NCBI GenBank assembly: GCA_965238135.1 | Contig: OZ250177.1 | Coordinates: 3,408,236-3,472,235 of the forward strand | DNA from: Candidatus Multivorans sp. | Lineage (GTDB): Bacteria; Acidobacteriota; Thermoanaerobaculia; Multivoradales; Multivoraceae | Length of the DNA stretch: 64,000 nucleotides | Direction: 5' to 3' | In this document: positions 7,893-29,022 of the stretch, piece by piece | Position numbering within the stretch: position 1 is the stretch's first letter | Layout: each line of letters opens with the position of its first letter | Translations under genes and position numbers: made by a program | The notes under the pieces: generated by a model | The model's input: the letters and a program-made list of their open reading frames with translations, nothing else | Database searches by the model: none | What the model was told of the DNA's origin: nothing

Positions 7893-8267
7893 CTACACCA
7901 GCTCGATTCCGGGCACGTCCTTGAAGTCGTCCTCGTTCAGGGTCCAGATCGCCGCGTCGTGGACGATCGCGCAGGCGGCGATGGCGATATCGGCCTCGCG
8001 GCCGCGGGGATTCGCCACCGCGTCGTAGATCACAGCTGCCCGGGCGGCGGTCTCCGCATCGAACGGAACCGCCGCGGCGGAGGGAAACAGCTCCTCCTGG
8101 GCCTGCAGTTCCACCATCCTCCGCGGCCCCCGCAGCCACTCGTAGAGGACGACGGTCGAGAGCGCCAGCCGGTGCCCTTCGTCAACGAGTTCGAAGAGAC
8201 GGTGGATCGAATCGTGCGGTCCCGTCAGGGCGCCGACAAGGGCCGACGTGTCGACATGGACGATCAT
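7893..8267 (-). CDS. vapC: PIN-domain toxin (VapC-like)
   Basis: MIVHVDTSALV is a PIN N-terminus with the conserved Asp. The start overlaps the antitoxin stop in an ATGA at 8264-8267. Confidence 0.8.
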   Translation of the reverse strand: MIVHVDTSALVGALTGPHDSIHRLFELVDEGHRLALSTVVLYEWLRGPRRMVELQAQEELFPSAAAVPFDAETAARAAVIYDAVANPRGREADIAIAACAIVHDAAIWTLNEDDFKDVPGIELV

Positions 8268-8545
8268 GGGCGCGGCGGCCTTCGCCACCCGGTTCGCCGC
8301 GAAGCCCGGATCTCACGTAGCTCGGCGTTCGTTTCCTCTCGTGACCGGGCAGGTGGGGCTTCGCGGATGCGGTCGATGACCTTGAGCATGCGCAGGCGTT
8401 CGACCTCACTCAGCCGATCGGCCCGGGCGGAAAAGTCGGCGACCGCTTCGCGGACGATCTGACTTTGGGGCTTGCCAAGGCGCTCCGCGGTCCTGCGGAT
8501 GCGATGGACTGTCGCTTCATCGAGTGAGTACGTAACCTTGACCAT
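8264..8545 (-). CDS. vapB: ribbon-helix-helix antitoxin (VapB/CopG-like)
   Basis: MVKVTYSLDEATVHRIRRTAERLGKPQSQIVREAV is an RHH pattern. The gene lies immediately upstream of the PIN gene and is coupled to it. Confidence 0.7.
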   Translation of the reverse strand: MVKVTYSLDEATVHRIRRTAERLGKPQSQIVREAVADFSARADRLSEVERLRMLKVIDRIREAPPARSREETNAELREIRASRRTGWRRPPRP

Positions 8546-8669
8546 AACGCGGCAATACTGCCATAACTGGTCGGCATCGCCCCGGTGGGATGGCCAGAGA
8601 AGAGAGCCAGTGCCGGCGCTTTGCACCGGATGCGGGCGCGGATCGCGCCACCCGGGTTCCCAGGAGCTC

Positions 8670-9798: not shown

Positions 9799-10701
9799 CT
9801 ACATGCGGTCCGCGAGCTGCAGCGCCGGATCGAACAGGCGATTCGGCGCCTCGTTCTCGCCCAGGAGAAACCGGATCTCGTCGTCGTAGCCGGTCATCTC
9901 CCAGCGGATGAGCGAGATCGGGATGATGCCGCCGGCGAGGAACTCGTCGATGAAGTCTCTGAGCACGAAGTCGTCGCCGAGTTGCATCGCGCGTTCGCGG
10001 AAAAGTTTCATGAAGTGGGCCTTGCCGACCACGACGCCGGTGTGGAAGCCGGGGAAGCGCAGGTTGGACTCCATCTCGTACAAGACCATGCGCTCGTCCT
10101 CCTGGGACCAGCCCTTGGCCATCAGCGCGGCACACAGCTTTCTCGACTCGTCGAAGGTGATCAGGTTCGCGTGCATCGCGAGGTCCGGCAGCGCCAGGCT
10201 CATGTGGGAGATGTTCATCAGGTACTCGACCTCGCGGCCGCGCCGCGGCCGCTCATCGAGGACGCCGGCCTGCATCAGGAGCTCCTCCAGGGCGACGGCC
10301 CAGCCTTCCATCCGCATCCAGTCCATGTTGAAGCGACGGTTTGCGCCGCGGATCGGCCGCTCGTCGCGCTGTCGCCGCTGGTCGTCGAACATGTGGCCGA
10401 CGTACTCGTGGGACTCGCCGGGCAGGATCTCGCGCTCGCGGGCCTTGTGGTCGATGCTCGGGTCGGACGGGAGTGGTTCGGGCTCCGAGACCGGCCAGTC
10501 GTCGATCTCGATCGCGGCGAGCCGCGCCTTGTAGTTCTCGAGGCCTTGGCGTTGCCGCTCCATCGCCTCGGCGGTGTAGTCGGGCACGCCGCCCACGATC
10601 TCGGGCTCCTGGAAGACGCGGAAGTCCTCGAAGAGCTGCAGGAGACATGCGGGCTCCTTCTCAGCGAAGTGGCGGGTCTTCTTGGCGTCCGAGAGGGCTA
10701 C
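9799..10701 (-). pseudogene. DUF885-like metallopeptidase-fold protein, C-terminal half only
   Basis: HEYVGH, EGWAVALEELLMQAG and FIDEFLAGGIIPISL blocks resemble the C-terminal half of DUF885 (about 550-600 aa when intact). The frame is closed by a stop at 10702-10704. The first start candidate is the GTG at 10596. Confidence 0.5.
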
Positions 10702-10720
10702 TCACTGGCAAGCTCCGCGA

Positions 10721-10749
10721 TTGACAGGAGTTGTCCATGAGGCAATAGT
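10721..10749 (+). promoter_or_regulatory. sigma70-like promoter facing the three-gene cassette
   Basis: TTGACA (10721-10726), a 17-nt spacer, then AATAGT (10744-10749). It lies about 190 nt upstream of the ATG at 10937. Confidence 0.35.
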
Positions 10750-10936
10750 CAGCGTGTGCTCGGCCAGGAGACCGTGCCCGGGCGTCCCACGTTGGGCATC
10801 GCCGACCTCCACCGCCGATGGTACTCCTCGGGCGGAGAGAGGGTGATACCGTGCCCGGCCCCCGGAGGGGCACTGACCTGCCGGTCACACTCCAGAGGCG
10901 ATGGACGTCCGGTGCCCCGGACCAGGGTTCGCGGCA

Positions 10937-11704
10937 ATGACTAACTCCTCCCGGCCAAATCGCATTCGCACACTGGCCAACGCGCCGATTCGGGAGGCGC
11001 TGATAGACCTCCGCTGCGAGTTGCCGGAAGGTCAGGACGCCGAGCTGTTGGCCAGATTCGATGCCGCTCATCGGGGGATCGAGAGCGAGTTCCCCGAGAA
11101 GGGGAAGAACTACGCGGCGAGTGTTTCTGCCGAGTTGAAAGAAGGTACGGATCCAGCAGTTGCCGCGACCGCGGCGTTGCGTGGATACCACTTCAGGAAC
11201 TCTCAAGGAGACAAGATCGTCCAGTTTCGCCTTGATGGCTTCACTTTCAACAAGCTGCGCCCCTATACGAAATGGGCGCAACTCCGGGCGGAGGCTGAGA
11301 CTCTGTGGACGAAGTACAGGTCGTTGTTGTCGGAAGTTCGGGTTACGAGGGTTGGCGTCCGTTACATCAACGAGATCCAGGTTGCCCCCGGGGTCGGTTT
11401 CGAGACCATCTTCGTAGAGCCCCTGAGACAGCCGCTGGGCTTCGGTAAGGGTCGAATTCGGCAGTCTTTGGAGCGACTTCAAGTCTCGAGTCACGACGCC
11501 TTCGAGAGGACGATAGTGACCCGCCTAGCTAGAGAAGAGAAAGCGGGGTTCACTGTGATCCTCGATATCGACGCCTTTGCCGTGGCGCCAGATGGGGCCT
11601 TCGAGGACTGCGAGGTGTGGGCGCGTATTGACGAACTTCGTAGCCGGAAGAACGAGATCTTCTTCAGCAGTTTGACTGCCAACGGAATCGAGAGGTACGC
11701 ATGA
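10937..11704 (+). CDS. TIGR04255-like uncharacterised protein
   Basis: N-terminal NAPIREALIDLRCE, central RVGVRYINEI and C-terminal ILDIDAF...EIFFSSLT match my memory of the TIGR04255 family layout (about 260 aa). Local GC is visibly lower than in the flanks. Confidence 0.6.
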   Translation: MTNSSRPNRIRTLANAPIREALIDLRCELPEGQDAELLARFDAAHRGIESEFPEKGKNYAASVSAELKEGTDPAVAATAALRGYHFRNSQGDKIVQFRLDGFTFNKLRPYTKWAQLRAEAETLWTKYRSLLSEVRVTRVGVRYINEIQVAPGVGFETIFVEPLRQPLGFGKGRIRQSLERLQVSSHDAFERTIVTRLAREEKAGFTVILDIDAFAVAPDGAFEDCEVWARIDELRSRKNEIFFSSLTANGIERYA

Positions 11705-12201
11705 GTCTAGTTGCCGTAGAAGCTCAGGATTGGGTGGGACAACTCGGGAGGCGGCGCTCGACGGCTGTTGGGCCGGAGGCGTTTCGAATCGATAGGGAGG
11801 AAGAGACTTCGGAATCAGCAGTCTCCGCATGGCAGTTGTCGAGACAGGATGCCAGGAGGAACCTGTGGGAGATCTTCGAAGAGGCGTCCGTTCCCGGCTG
11901 GGACGGTGACGATGCCAGGCCGCTCTCGCGCCGCGCGAAGGACGCCGTAGTCGATGCTCTCTTCACCCTTGCGCCCCATCTACCGATTCCCGAGATAGTG
12001 CCTGAGCCCGACGGTGGCGTGGCCATGGAGTGGTCGAGTGACAGTACGCACTCTCTGATTGTGAGTTTCGGGCCGGATGGCGACCTCTACTTTGCCGTTC
12101 ACGTGCCGGGTCGGCGAGAGTCGGGCCGACGCCCTTTCGACGCCCAACTTCCCTCGGATCTGCTGGGGCTCGCGAAGGAGGCCGCGGCTGACGATCCGTG
12201 A
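11701..12201 (+). CDS. hypothetical protein (PGWDGDDA...PEPDGGVAMEW motif)
   Basis: The ATG overlaps the upstream stop in an ATGA at 11701-11704. The gene shares orientation and lower GC with its neighbours. I recognise no family. Confidence 0.5.
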   Translation: MSLVAVEAQDWVGQLGRRRSTAVGPEAFRIDREEETSESAVSAWQLSRQDARRNLWEIFEEASVPGWDGDDARPLSRRAKDAVVDALFTLAPHLPIPEIVPEPDGGVAMEWSSDSTHSLIVSFGPDGDLYFAVHVPGRRESGRRPFDAQLPSDLLGLAKEAAADDP

Positions 12202-12580
12202 TCGGGAGTCCGTTGCCCGGTTCCTTTACACGAAGAGTCACTTCTCCGTCGCCAAGAGGACGGTGAAGCACGCTGCCTTTATGCCCCCCAGTGATCTCCG
12301 AACGTCGGTCTACCGAATTGACGGGCTGGATGAGACAGGGGTGCGCCAGCTAGCTTCCGAAACATCTCGGAAGACTTCGTTCAAGGGACACGGGGTCTTC
12401 TTGGCGGCTGATGTGCGATCAGTGTCTCAACTGGATGTCGTTCCCGAAACGAGTCGACATCCGCTTCACGCCGACATTGTGGGTTGGCCGACAGAACGAG
12501 AGAAGCGGATTGAACTCGCCAGCCTGCTTGCTGCCAAGGCTGAATTTGTACCGTCAGCGCCGGGACCCAGCTCGGCTTGA
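12077..12580 (+). CDS. hypothetical protein (conserved-looking core FMPPSDLRTSVYRIDG...HADIVGWP); start uncertain
   Basis: This is the longest ORF, from the ATG at 12077, and it overlaps the previous gene by 125 nt. After the upstream stop at 12199-12201 the first canonical starts are the GTG at 12263 and the ATG at 12281. Confidence 0.45.
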   Translation: MATSTLPFTCRVGESRADALSTPNFPRICWGSRRRPRLTIRDRESVARFLYTKSHFSVAKRTVKHAAFMPPSDLRTSVYRIDGLDETGVRQLASETSRKTSFKGHGVFLAADVRSVSQLDVVPETSRHPLHADIVGWPTEREKRIELASLLAAKAEFVPSAPGPSSA

Positions 12581-12639
12581 CGGTGAGGTCGTGTACACGG
12601 CCGAATTGACCACCCGGCCGCGGGAGCACTGCTGCCGAT

Positions 12640-14223
12640 CTATGGAATGTTGACCAGGGTGTAGTACGCCTCCGGGTGGAGAAGCGGCTCGCCGCCCTTG
12701 CTCCGGACTCCGTCGAGATGCAACTCGTGGACGTAGCCGGCGCGCAGCGGCTCGACGGTCAGGCGGACGCTCATGCCGTCGGCGGCGACCCGGGCGGATC
12801 GGATGGCGACCCGCAACTTGTCGTCCTCGGGCCCGCCGTAGCTCGCGCTGAGGCGGTAGGTGTAGCTCTGCATGCGGTAGGACGCGGTGTCCCCTGCGCT
12901 GTCCCGATCCACCGGCCGGGTGAACGTGAGTTCGAAGCCGTCGGGCTGCGCGCGCATCTCGTGGATCTCGAACGGCACGGCGCCGGTCCAGACGATCCGC
13001 TGGAGACCGTGCGGCTCGGGGCCGACGCCGCCCCAGCCGCGGTCCGACATGCCGGCGAAGAGCGATCCGTCGTCAGCGAACGCGAGGCGAATCACCCCGC
13101 TGTCGAGGCCGCGCCGGAAGTTGAACGCGGCGCCCTGCCAGTGGCCGCCGATCTTCTCCAGGAACACCCGCATGACCATCGCGTGATGCTGGTCGCCGAT
13201 GAAGAGCTGGCCGGCGAAGGGCCCGAACTTGCCGCCGGTCGTGTCCCACTTGAGACCGCTGGGGGACTGCCCCATCTTCACGTAGGGGAACCACACCGAC
13301 GGCATGCGGAAGTTCGGAATCGCCTGGTGCAGGTCCTTCATGAAGGTCCCGCCCTGCGGCTGGCCGTCCGGCGGCGGCTCGACCTTGGACTCGGGTAGGT
13401 GGGTGGAAGCCATGCCGTGGGGATGACCATGAAAGTCGCCCACATCGATCAGCGAGAGCTTCGAGGCGTTGTTCCACTCGCCCTGGTTGTCCGTGTAGAA
13501 GACCTCGCCCCAGGGGCTGACCTCGACGCCGGCGGGAGAGCGCAGGCCGGCGGCGACGAACTCGGCGTCGCCGCTCGCGGGATCGATTCGGACCGCCCAG
13601 CCCCGCCAGTCCGCGAACCCGTAGGGCTGGGCGCCGAAGGGGATGTTCAGCGTCACCCAGATCTTGCCGTCCGGCGTCAGGCGCGGTCCGAAAACGTACT
13701 CGTGGTAGTCGCCGCTGGTTTCCCAGGCATCCGTGACGGTCTCGAAGACATCGGCCCGGTCGTCGCCGTCGGTGTCCTTGATCCGCGTCAGCTCGCCTCG
13801 CTGTGCCGTGTAGATCCAGCCGTCGAGTTCGAGCAGGCCGAGCGGCTGCCCGAGGCCGAAGGCGTACTGCTTGAACGTCGGTTGCGGCGGATCGCTGAAC
13901 GCGTTCTCGACGATGAAGATCTCGCCCCGCCGGGTTCCCGCCATGATGCGGCCGTCCGAGAGCTGCAACAGCCCGCCGACCTCCATCGACATGCCCTCCT
14001 CGAGGGGCATCGTGAGCAGCCGGTAGGACAGATCCTCCGCGGCGGCCTGCGCGCCGATGGCGTCCTGCTGGCGGGCGAGGATCTGCTTCTCCGTCTCTTC
14101 GCGCAGGCCATCGTCCAGGGGTTCCTGGGCCAGAAGGGCCAGGGGCAGGGAGATCAGCAGGGCGAGCAGCGCCGTGGCGGCGGCGCGGCCGGGTTGCAAG
14201 GTGTTTGCGCTCACGAGGGCCAT
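12640..14223 (-). CDS. secreted beta-propeller protein, sugar-dehydrogenase-like (membrane-bound dehydrogenase domain type)
   Basis: Signal peptide ALLALLISLPLALLAQEP. The DTDGDDRADVFETV and GLGQPLGLLELDGWIYT blocks resemble the SGL/PQQ-type propellers found fused or adjacent to heme-binding domains. It lies 4 nt downstream of the cytochrome gene. Confidence 0.55.
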   Translation of the reverse strand: MALVSANTLQPGRAAATALLALLISLPLALLAQEPLDDGLREETEKQILARQQDAIGAQAAAEDLSYRLLTMPLEEGMSMEVGGLLQLSDGRIMAGTRRGEIFIVENAFSDPPQPTFKQYAFGLGQPLGLLELDGWIYTAQRGELTRIKDTDGDDRADVFETVTDAWETSGDYHEYVFGPRLTPDGKIWVTLNIPFGAQPYGFADWRGWAVRIDPASGDAEFVAAGLRSPAGVEVSPWGEVFYTDNQGEWNNASKLSLIDVGDFHGHPHGMASTHLPESKVEPPPDGQPQGGTFMKDLHQAIPNFRMPSVWFPYVKMGQSPSGLKWDTTGGKFGPFAGQLFIGDQHHAMVMRVFLEKIGGHWQGAAFNFRRGLDSGVIRLAFADDGSLFAGMSDRGWGGVGPEPHGLQRIVWTGAVPFEIHEMRAQPDGFELTFTRPVDRDSAGDTASYRMQSYTYRLSASYGGPEDDKLRVAIRSARVAADGMSVRLTVEPLRAGYVHELHLDGVRSKGGEPLLHPEAYYTLVNIP

Positions 14224-27974: not shown

Positions 27975-28457
27975 TCATCTCTTGTTGCGGCGGCCCGCTT
28001 CAAGAGCCTGGAGGACCTCCTCCGGGGTTCGTTCGGCAGAGGCGAACGGATCGATCACCCGAACTTCGCCGAAAGTCTGGCCGTGCTGGAGATCCTCGGT
28101 GAGGAGGACCGGACATCCACACGATTGAGCGGCCGCCACGATCAACGCGTCCCACCAGGACAGCGAGTTGGCCTGCTCGAGAATCCACGCTCGTTCCATG
28201 ATGGCGAGGTTGACCGGGACCGGCTGCCACGCGGCCAGAGCCCGGACGATCTGGCGAGCTTTGGCGCCGCCCATGCCCGGCTTCAGCTTGCGGGTAAGGG
28301 TCGCGTACAGCTCCTGCAAGACCTGCACACTCAGGCGGCCGGAGTGGCTGCGCCATAGATACGAGTACCAGTCTTCGGCACGCGACTGCTTCGCCGGGTC
28401 GGACGAGTCGTGCCGGTAGACGAGTACGTTCGTGTCAACGAAGACCGGGCCGGTCAT
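27975..28457 (-). CDS. vapC: PIN-domain toxin (VapC-like)
   Basis: MTGPVFVDTNVLVY is the PIN N-terminus and WWDALIVAAAQSCGCPVLLTEDLQHG the C-terminal block. Confidence 0.8.
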   Translation of the reverse strand: MTGPVFVDTNVLVYRHDSSDPAKQSRAEDWYSYLWRSHSGRLSVQVLQELYATLTRKLKPGMGGAKARQIVRALAAWQPVPVNLAIMERAWILEQANSLSWWDALIVAAAQSCGCPVLLTEDLQHGQTFGEVRVIDPFASAERTPEEVLQALEAGRRNKR

Positions 28458-28677
28458 GGAGCGAGTCTCGCGAGGGGTAAGGCTGGCCCTTCTGCTTCAG
28501 CCTCTCGGGCTGAATCGCGAGGGCTCGTTCCATGGCGACGTCGTAACGATCCTCCTGGCGCCTCATCCGTTGAACCAGGTCTGCCAACCAGCGGGAAACA
28601 CTGCGCTCGTTCTCCGCAGCGCGGACCCGGACCCACCGGGCGTCGTCTTCAGGCAGCGCGATCGTGATGTTCTTCAC
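28435..28677 (-). CDS. vapB: ribbon-helix-helix antitoxin (VapB-like)
   Basis: (V)KNITIALPEDDARWVRVRAAENERSVSRWLADLV follows an RHH pattern. The gene overlaps the PIN gene by 23 nt. Confidence 0.7.
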   Translation of the reverse strand: MKNITIALPEDDARWVRVRAAENERSVSRWLADLVQRMRRQEDRYDVAMERALAIQPERLKQKGQPYPSRDSLHDRPGLR

Positions 28678-28694
28678 GGCACGAGACTAGGGAA

Positions 28695-28709
28695 ACACGA
28701 AGTTCGTGT
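28695..28709. promoter_or_regulatory. perfect palindrome upstream of vapB (candidate operator)
   Basis: ACACGAA-G-TTCGTGT lies 18 nt upstream of the antitoxin GTG. It also overlaps a short relic that resembles a PIN N-terminus. Confidence 0.3.
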
Positions 28710-28730
28710 CAACGAGTCTGGGTATGAGAG

Positions 28731-28757
28731 AAGGGCGCGGCCTGTGGCCGCGCCCTT
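28731..28757 (-). terminator. GC-rich hairpin downstream of the tRNA-like element
   Basis: AAGGGCGCGGCC-tgt-GGCCGCGCCCTT has a 12-bp perfect stem. It is followed on the minus strand by CTTCTCTCAT, a weak U-tract. Confidence 0.45.
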
Positions 28758-28765
28758 TGAAGACT

Positions 28766-28860
28766 TGGTAGCGGGGGCAGGATTTGAACCTGGGAGCCTT
28801 GGGCTATGGCAGGCCGATGGGTTAGGTGCTCTAGACGGTCTTGCGGTGGAAGCCCCCGCT
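28766..28860 (-). pseudogene. degenerate tandem copy of the initiator tRNA gene (95 nt, no valid D-arm or anticodon arm)
   Basis: The 3' half (CAGGTTCAAATCCTGCCCCCGCTACCA), the 3' flank and the terminator are near-identical to the tRNA at 28905-28981. A 7-bp acceptor stem AGCGGGG/CCCCGCT is still possible. The 5' and central parts have diverged and are expanded. Confidence 0.5.
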
Positions 28861-28869
28861 AGACGGGAG

Positions 28870-28896
28870 AAGGGCGCGGCCAGCGGCCGCGCCCTT
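28870..28896 (-). terminator. GC-rich hairpin downstream of tRNA-fMet
   Basis: AAGGGCGCGGCC-agc-GGCCGCGCCCTT has the same stem as 28731-28757. Confidence 0.45.
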
Positions 28897-28904
28897 AGAA
28901 GACT

Positions 28905-28981
<77 letters not shown>

Positions 28982-28993
28982 TCAGGACGGGGG

Positions 28994-29022
28994 ATCGTGG
29001 CACAGGAGGGGTGCAGTGTCAA
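28994..29022 (-). promoter_or_regulatory. sigma70-like promoter for the tRNA
   Basis: On the minus strand: TTGACA (29022-29017), a 17-nt spacer, then CACGAT (28999-28994). It lies about 13 nt upstream of the mature tRNA 5' end. Confidence 0.35.

Follow-up and report, generated by a model that had tools for sequence, protein, structure and literature searches.

We analysed a stretch of 64,000 nucleotides from Candidatus Multivorans sp. (Acidobacteriota; contig OZ250177.1, positions 3,408,236 to 3,472,235 of the forward strand), called the window below; all positions are counted from its first letter. Between a degenerate DUF885 gene and a DUF7133 β-propeller gene the window carries a compact cassette of three genes, which we designate A, B and C. 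A preliminary description, made from the sequence alone, had pointed to this cassette as a lower-GC accessory or defence-type module. Related loci from other genomes, metagenomes and viruses are cited by labels of the form L001, and the coordinates of all features are given in Table 1.

All three co-directional open reading frames (ORFs) of the preliminary description were found on the plus strand. The ATG of gene B overlaps the TGA of gene A as ATGA (4 nt), which was confirmed by direct reading of the sequence, and B and C overlap by approximately 14 nt. Across the loci studied the gene overlaps amount to 4-26 nt, as in coupled operons.

Table 1. Features of the A-B-C cassette, its flanking genes, and variant genes at related loci
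Feature	Position	Strand	Basis or remark
Inserted segment, ~1.98 kb (promoter, leader, genes A, B and C)	~10660..12639	.	empty site in L122/L095
Sigma-70-like promoter TTGACA-17-AATAGT	10721..10749	+	10/12 consensus matches; predicted function
Conserved leader, ~190 nt upstream of A	10750..10936	+	upstream alignment
Gene A, 255 aa, TIGR04255 family, predicted TBP-like double-domain fold	10937..11704	+	NCBIfam match, AlphaFold2 (AF2) model
Gene B, 166 aa, acidic; variable N-terminus and conserved C-terminal WDGxGA...PEPDGxxxxEW domain	11701..12201	+	ORF, family alignment
AAGGAGG Shine-Dalgarno sequence for C, inside the 3' end of B	12175..12181	+	invariant in 8/8 related cassettes, 6 nt before CTG
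Gene C, ~130 aa, putative non-canonical CTG start; large family of ~137 aa	12188..12580	+	coding signal, AF2 model
DUF7133 β-propeller gene, convergent with the cassette (context)	12640..14223	-	Pfam DUF7133; 14 nt upstream of DUF885, same strand, in cassette-free relatives
Degenerate DUF885 gene (context, outside the cassette)	9799..10648	-	Pfam DUF885, C-terminal part only
GNFNPAI proteins replacing A	L012:5764-6438; L015:700-1461; L040:1690-2313		no Pfam/PADLOC match
Divergent third gene of prophage/viral copies	L083:1621-2058; L090:4108-4509; L091:1261-1710		

The cassette differs sharply in composition from the rest of the window. The guanine-plus-cytosine (GC) content of positions 10937-12580 is 0.597, compared with 0.687 ± 0.018 in the other segments of 1.6 kb (z-score -4.96), and it is the lowest value of the whole 64 kb. 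At third codon positions (GC3) the cassette genes have 0.61-0.70 and the flanking genes 0.84-0.92. The tetranucleotide distance is also largest at the cassette, with none of the 294 other segments reaching as high a value. The low GC content noticed in the preliminary description is thereby borne out.

Close relatives of the window include both occupied and empty sites. In two metagenome contigs, L122 and L095, the stop codon of the propeller gene is followed, after 14 nt and on the same strand, by the start codon of the DUF885 gene. These contigs are as close to the window as its cassette-bearing relatives are (the propeller protein is 88-90% identical). They have a 14-nt gap where the window has approximately 2 kb; therefore the segment ~10660-12639 is an insertion. 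Its borders in the window are set by the DUF885 start codon (CAT, 10646-10648) and the remnant of the DUF885 ribosome-binding site, which ends at 10659, on one side and by the propeller stop codon (12640-12642) on the other. The cassette occupies this site in seven syntenic relatives, namely L001, L002, L008-L011 and the metagenome contig L120; two shorter contigs, L144 and L145, resemble L120 in arrangement and identities and may come from the same population. The closest relative is L008, with 96% identity in C and ~97% in DNA. A further locus, L007, shares with the window the cassette alone (10967-12540, 73% identity); its flanks differ and an SNF2 helicase gene lies upstream. Since the homology to L007 is limited to the cassette, the three genes travel as a unit. 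The segment ~10660-12639 is almost certainly an inserted accessory module conserved as a unit.

In agreement with the preliminary description, no integrase or transposase gene was seen beside the cassette. Searches for flanking direct or inverted repeats gave matches at chance level only, terminal repeats and a clear target-site duplication were not found, and the nearest tRNA gene is 16 kb away.

The conservation of the three genes was assessed beyond the close relatives. One genome per species was scanned with a C profile, which gave 74 loci, and all ORFs of these loci were searched with hidden Markov models. The loci have unrelated flanks and span at least 12 phyla; they were found in Verrucomicrobiota, Nitrospirota, Latescibacterota, α-, β- and δ-proteobacteria, Planctomycetota, Acidobacteriota, Chloroflexota, Gemmatimonadota, Armatimonadota, Hydrogenedentota, Cloacimonadota, a bacterium of the candidate phyla radiation (CPR) and Bdellovibrionales. 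Wherever a locus includes DNA upstream of C, gene B is the gene directly before C, and C was never seen without B. Gene A precedes B in most of the loci and is missing from seven. Loci found independently through A show the same A-B-C trio. Thus the branch of TIGR04255 closest to gene A consistently has B and C downstream, which is a new observation. In L012, L015 and L040 the place of A is taken by a different protein of 208-254 aa with the motif GNFNPAI; hhalign comparison of these proteins with A was not significant, and no relationship to A could be detected.

All three genes evolve under purifying selection, with ratios of nonsynonymous to synonymous substitution rates (dN/dS) of 0.08-0.29 in six genomes. 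Among approximately 90 scored loci only two frame-disrupting splits were detected, both in C; A and B are never split. Taken together, these data are best explained if ~10660-12639 was acquired horizontally as a self-contained operon of three genes and has been kept by selection since its insertion. It is very improbable that A-B-C is instead an ordinary cellular operon, for example one of nucleic-acid or nucleotide metabolism that includes a TBP-like protein and owes its foreign look to amino-acid composition. The strong purifying selection, the stable chromosomal position in one lineage and the metabolic neighbours at many loci would fit such an operon. Its presence in some close relatives and absence from others, where the site is cleanly empty, would not, and neither would its patchy distribution over at least 12 phyla with unrelated flanks or its carriage by prophages; moreover, its GC3 lies 0.2-0.3 below that of the neighbours, which is beyond what amino-acid composition explains.

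The start of gene C required separate consideration. According to the preliminary description, the C frame has no canonical start codon between the stop of B and a GTG at 12263, so that C would begin either at an ATG at 12077, inside B, or at an unusual codon. The difficulty is real: in the clade of the window the C frame contains no ATG, GTG or TTG between 12092 and 12263. Of the codons proposed, neither the ATG nor the GTG fits. In pairwise comparisons of the window with six relatives, the segment 12203-12262 evolves as coding sequence in the C frame (dN/dS ~0.2, like the rest of C), while for the part of this frame that lies inside B (12077-12187) dN/dS is 0.7-11.8 and exceeds 1.8 in five of the six comparisons, that is, this part is not coding. 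The translation of C must therefore start within 12188-12202, an interval with a single conserved near-cognate codon, the CTG at 12188. Both this CTG and the AAGGAGG sequence upstream of it are invariant in eight cassettes, including that of L007, which is only 73% identical overall. The evidence thus points to the CTG at 12188, behind AAGGAGG, as the probable start of C.

Other candidates were rejected. L001 and L002 have no ATG at 12077, and downstream of this position the C frame shows the high dN/dS just described. The GTG at 12263, used in database gene calls (P0001-P0003), would leave out 60 nt that evolve as coding sequence and encode the ARFL strand; this strand is conserved throughout the family and its model is confident. 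A GTG at 12198 that overlaps the stop codon of B is in the wrong frame, and the slippery context that a fusion of B and C by a +1 frameshift would need is not conserved. Distant C homologues begin approximately 18 residues ahead of the ARFL motif, and their overlap with B is 26 nt. Because of the seeming CTG start, gene callers fail on gene C of the window clade: they skipped it in L001 and L002 and shortened it in P0001-P0003.

A profile search returned at least 961 C proteins or clusters at E ≤ 0.01, a lower bound obtained from 8,000 scored candidates. These proteins are ~137 aa long and all unnamed. They share the motifs LPSGLP, ARFLTSS, AAFMPNP..GETSVFRHG and EPPxRHADIxGWPW; in the family alignment R43, R77, H94 and A95 are invariant, and D96 (D or N) and E88 nearly so. 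The AF2 model of C, built from the CTG, has a predicted local distance difference test score (pLDDT) of 93.6 overall and 95 over the first block, in which strand 8-13 forms part of the sheet. Foldseek gave no match to this model in PDB (best E 0.65) or BFVD (best E 0.02, template modelling (TM) score 0.44). No Pfam, NCBIfam or PHROG family and no sequence relatives in PDB were found for C.

The same searches found no Pfam, NCBIfam or PHROG family and no PDB sequence relatives for gene B. In the B family the first 60 residues are variable, and a conserved domain of ~110 residues follows (C..WDGYGA..., LP...P.PE...EPDG.I.LEW). The protein is acidic, with an isoelectric point (pI) of 4.55 in the window and a family median of 4.9, and its dN/dS is ~0.2. 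One of the 35 B proteins, that of L029, has an HTH_17 domain at the N-terminus; it belongs to a locus without A, and the domain is absent from B of the window.

Gene A was described preliminarily as TIGR04255-like and proved to be a full member of this family. It scores 105.5 bits against the NCBIfam model TIGR04255 (E = 3.9e-30; the cut-off is 30 bits), and its residues 13-251 align to model positions 2-248 of 252. At E ≤ 0.001 an exhaustive phmmer search yielded 3,816 cluster representatives, almost all with a length of 240-260 aa. Of the three genes, A is both the longest and the one conserved best: its dN/dS is 0.08-0.15, and among relatives it is 93-95% identical, compared with 72-83% for B and C. 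The family is sporadically distributed and its name gives no function, and a full-text literature search found no paper mentioning TIGR04255. Profile searches of A, B and C against the sequences of PDB gave nothing meaningful. The trio has no known function, in keeping with the preliminary description: no Pfam family and no paper covers any of its proteins, and the family of A carries only a name.

The AF2 model of A, built from 97 sequences, is confident (pLDDT 94.8, predicted TM score 0.89). The order of its elements is β-α-β-β-β-β-α / β-(short helix)-β-β-β-α, i.e., β-α-β4-α twice. The top Foldseek matches in PDB are TBP chains, with a probability of 0.99 for the best match and 0.84-0.99 overall (E ~2e-3). 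The model of A has the duplicated β-α-β4-α order of TBP. It differs in that the TM-scores are only 0.3-0.43, the root-mean-square deviation is ~11 Å, sequence identity is 6-10% and A is 75 residues longer; DNA binding by A would be a prediction. We suggest that A may be a TBP-like pseudo-dimer without close relatives, as its secondary-structure order fits despite the low TM-scores. Conserved charged residues (E20, D24, Q96, R98, R138, R142, N145, D210, D212 and K238) alternate along the strands of the modelled sheet, which suggests a binding surface. A match from the PDB sequence search with A, 9hnh_A, was discarded: with two internal repeats in the alignment, it looks like a designed repeat protein.

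The predicted TBP-like fold and the partners B and C are assigned to a TIGR04255 protein here for the first time. Another member of the family, of the same name, is encoded on the Crinalium epipsammum plasmid pCRI9333.03 (L082, 4998-6828), where the two genes after the TIGR04255 gene encode proteins of 182 and 171 aa with no relationship to B or C. The two downstream genes overlap or adjoin each other, and a DNA methyltransferase gene and an HNH gene are nearby. A-type proteins may therefore pair with alternative partners.

The cassette appears to have its own promoter. The near-consensus sigma-70-like sequence pointed out in the preliminary description was found upstream of A; its -35 element is conserved in six syntenic relatives, which also have a TATA(A/G)T-like -10 element. 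The upstream alignment (10690-10945) of the seven syntenic relatives and L007 has a mean column identity of 78%. The GC content of the leader is 0.67, which is host-like and unlike that of the genes after it. Secondary structure is predicted for the leader, but compensatory changes occur in only two pairs, and an Rfam search of the leader and its region gave no match.

In the host operon the gene order is cytochrome, propeller, DUF885 and aldo-keto reductase, all co-directional, and the cassette is inserted antisense where 14 nt separate the propeller gene from the DUF885 gene. The DUF885 gene of the window has an in-frame internal deletion of 735 nt relative to L001, L009, L010 and L011. The region of the signal peptide is gone as well and the old start codon is out of frame, i.e., the gene is a pseudogene. 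The preliminary description was thus right that this gene is degenerate, but the cassette does not lie at a gene-disruption site: the insertion is intergenic, and the cassette is ruled out as the direct cause of the truncation, as DUF885 is whole next to it in the four relatives just named. The deletions of DUF885 in L002 and L008 differ from that of the window. With intact copies in four cassette carriers and differing deletions elsewhere, the decay must have been later and independent. The antisense insertion may have cut DUF885 off from the operon promoter and so relaxed the selection on it.

Other features of the surroundings are noted for completeness. A pair of PIN and ribbon-helix-helix (RHH) genes, VapBC-like, occupies positions 7893-8626 (minus strand) between a sulfatase region and the aldo-keto reductase gene. 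It is kept in L001 and L002, and the cassette-free L122 has only ~20 nt at its site; it is thus a second small accessory insertion within 3 kb of the cassette. Among the next-lowest stretches of the window in GC content is 28001-29000 (0.640), which contains the only tRNA gene of the window (tRNA-Met, 28905-28981, minus strand). Further tetranucleotide outliers lie near 25.6 kb and 40 kb.

We then considered the genes adjacent to the trio in other genomes. Neighbours were counted among the two nearest upstream genes of ~57 loci. The families N6_Mtase, Eco57I, MmeI, TaqI_C and HSDR_N occur 4-5 times each among these genes, and PADLOC models of type I and IIG systems match 5-8 of the encoded proteins. 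Individual loci have an MmeI enzyme, a TIR-STAND protein, a Zeta toxin, an N6_N4 methylase or Fic as neighbour. One array consists of GmrSD, a methylase, ImmA and then A-B-C; another, tightly packed and in one direction, of hsdR, hsdMS, X, A, B and C, where hsdR and hsdMS belong to restriction-modification (RM). Overall, defence-type neighbours (RM, GmrSD, TIR-STAND, Zeta, Fic, SNF2 and UvrD-like) were found in a sizeable minority of ~70 loci by raw counts. The gene X occurs in L153-L158 (6004-6756 in L153) between a fused hsdM/S gene and A, which it overlaps by 4 nt. It encodes 250 aa and is conserved across the six contigs; it belongs to no Pfam family and does not resemble A, B or C.

A UvrD-like helicase of ~700 aa with a RelE/HigB-like N-terminus is encoded directly after C in eight loci (L021, L033, L040, L063, L065, L068, L078 and L094). 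In L021 and L040 a methylase, A-B-C (or alternative A with B-C) and the helicase follow one another. Fragments of the helicase, short N- or C-terminal remnants, flank the cassette in at least six further loci (L037, L041, L059, L069, L076 and L151); in L059 residues 3-104 are encoded upstream of A and residues 649-699 downstream of C. The helicase gene could be an ancestral fourth gene of the module or a preferred target of its insertion.

Such arrangements can also be read in another way: A-B-C could be an accessory of larger RM or helicase systems, with a specificity, regulatory or anti-restriction-sensing role, and a cassette standing alone, as in the window, would be an orphan of little function. 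The packed arrays of hsdR, hsdMS, X, A, B and C, the loci with both a methylase and the UvrD-like helicase, and the helicase fragments around several cassettes are in favour of this explanation. We consider it quite unlikely, as the lineage of the window lacks a nearby partner and nevertheless keeps all three genes under the purifying selection described above, most loci have no RM or helicase neighbours, and the partner genes vary from locus to locus, as expected for co-location in defence islands.

Viral copies of the trio were found on eight IMG/VR contigs and in the P2-like Ralstonia phage YO139_2 (Peduoviridae, 36.6 kb), where a divergent copy takes up the last 1.1 kb; viral contigs of 37-39 kb likewise have a divergent copy at the end. 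The third gene is divergent in four of the nine viral copies (L083, L090, L091 and L092). It keeps the motifs AF..PSV.R, VR and AHA and has lost GWPW, and its hhalign similarity to C is weak (E = 0.005). In L091 and L092 an unannotated ORF of 337 aa lies downstream of the third gene. A pattern scan of IMG/VR with C found none of these copies, which came from a scan based on A; the negative result therefore reflects a limit of sensitivity. In its position the module resembles the defence cargo at the ends of P2-like prophages and the genes embedded in type I RM loci (e.g., PrrC), with divergent A-B-C at a phage end and copies after hsdR-hsdMS. In contrast, the copy in the window lies on the chromosome, and neither prophage nor RM genes surround it.

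The PADLOC entry closest to A-B-C is PDC-M32, a two-gene defence candidate with M32A of ~375 aa, M32B of ~123 aa and 98 instances (Payne et al. 2024, bioRxiv 10.1101/2024.01.29.577857). PDC systems were nominated by their embedding in RM, BREX and DISARM loci (10.1101/2024.01.29.577857). In the B family 29 of 35 members match the C-terminal part of M32A (best E = 1.3e-6), the region of similarity being M32A 271-325. The divergent C of L012 matches M32B end to end (E = 0.013, positions 18-114 of 123). The gene order is also the same, and both systems are linked to RM. However, B is only half as long as M32A, whose first 270 positions have no equivalent in B, the match covers a small part of the 375 positions of M32A, C of the window does not match M32B, and gene A has no detectable counterpart among the PADLOC models. 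By these sequence matches, the cassette is a remote relative of PDC-M32 and not a member. Small multi-gene cassettes of defence islands are a familiar kind of element, but the A-B-C trio itself is undescribed and absent from PADLOC.

The trio also resembles type II and tripartite toxin-antitoxin (TA) systems: the genes are small, compact and overlapping, the upstream protein is acidic, the downstream protein never occurs alone, and the genes spread horizontally and are polymorphic between strains as insertions or deletions. A selfish addiction module with no role in phage defence would account for these features, B neutralising a toxin C, A acting as a regulator or chaperone-like third partner, and loss being costly to the cell. 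The small co-directional genes with a putative neutraliser upstream, the lack of any C without B, the fact that the only frame-disrupted genes are two copies of C, the helix-turn-helix (HTH) domain of one B variant, and the neighbourhood shared with the VapBC-like pair, likewise an indel, all speak for it. On the other hand, no similarity to a known toxin or antitoxin family was found in Pfam, NCBIfam, PADLOC, PHROG or PDB, the family-wide pattern of charges is not TA-like, and almost all B proteins lack a DNA-binding domain. A third gene that is larger and better conserved than the other two is also not typical of TA accessory genes, and the repeated operonic packing with RM genes and the position at prophage ends point to defence. 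Addiction alone is therefore unlikely in our estimation; TA and defence roles are not mutually exclusive.

In sum, A-B-C is a widespread and previously undescribed module, and we give even chances to its having a defence or TA-like function. The outcomes that would have spoken against the accessory or defence-type reading of the preliminary description were a composition like that of the genome, families not adjacent to each other elsewhere, and confident structural matches to housekeeping enzymes. None of the three occurred: the cassette deviates strongly from the rest of the window, B and C are neighbours wherever upstream DNA is available among the 74 loci and mostly have A before them, and the confident models of A and C match no housekeeping enzyme. 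That reading is thus supported. An anti-phage system, of abortive-infection or TA-like kind, would be the most likely role of the trio, and we regard this role as about equally probable and improbable.

A mechanism of such a system may be outlined as follows. The small α/β protein C would be the effector. The acidic protein B, translationally coupled to C, would bind it through the conserved C-terminal domain and keep it inactive. The curved TBP-like β-sheet of A would bind a nucleic acid or a small ligand that appears on infection, and would in this way control the release of C. The acidity of B, the lack of A beside the B variant with an HTH domain, the absence of C without B and the TBP-like model of A are consistent with these roles, although the assignment of effector to C, neutraliser to B and sensor to A remains doubtful. 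It is possible, at a probability clearly below even, that A-B-C represents a new three-component anti-phage system, made of folds that had no earlier connection with immunity, in which a TBP-like sensor of a phage nucleic acid or nucleotide signal controls the release of the effector, unmatched in PDB and BFVD by its fold, from its acidic inhibitor, which has a domain in common with PDC-M32; the UvrD-like helicase with the RelE-like N-terminus would cooperate in some lineages.

A number of observations weigh against an anti-phage role or against parts of this mechanism. No component of the trio matches a protein of known activity. Nucleic-acid binding by A is suggested by topology only, in view of the low TM-scores with TBP. 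C proteins are not basic across the family (median pI 6.4), unlike those of classical type II TA pairs, and a DNA-binding domain is present in only one of the 35 B proteins. The links to PDC-M32 are weak, since B of the window matches M32A with E = 3e-4 over ~55 positions (model ~271-325) and C of the window, like typical C proteins, gives no match to M32B; PDC-M32 itself is only a predicted defence candidate. As for the genomic context, the figures for defence neighbours are raw counts, most loci have ordinary metabolic neighbours, and the cassette of the window itself has no restriction or helicase neighbour. Finally, tblastn searches of PLSDB plasmids and INPHARED phages with C and with B gave no match.

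The scale of the distribution is itself meaningful. Found in at least 12 phyla, carried by prophages and located next to restriction systems, the module is more than the peculiarity of a single genome. Should it prove to be a defence system, a TBP-like fold and a fold without match in PDB and BFVD would be among its parts, and it would provide the first functional handle on both TIGR04255 and PDC-M32. The occupied and empty sites in close relatives of Candidatus Multivorans sp. offer a natural starting point for experiments.

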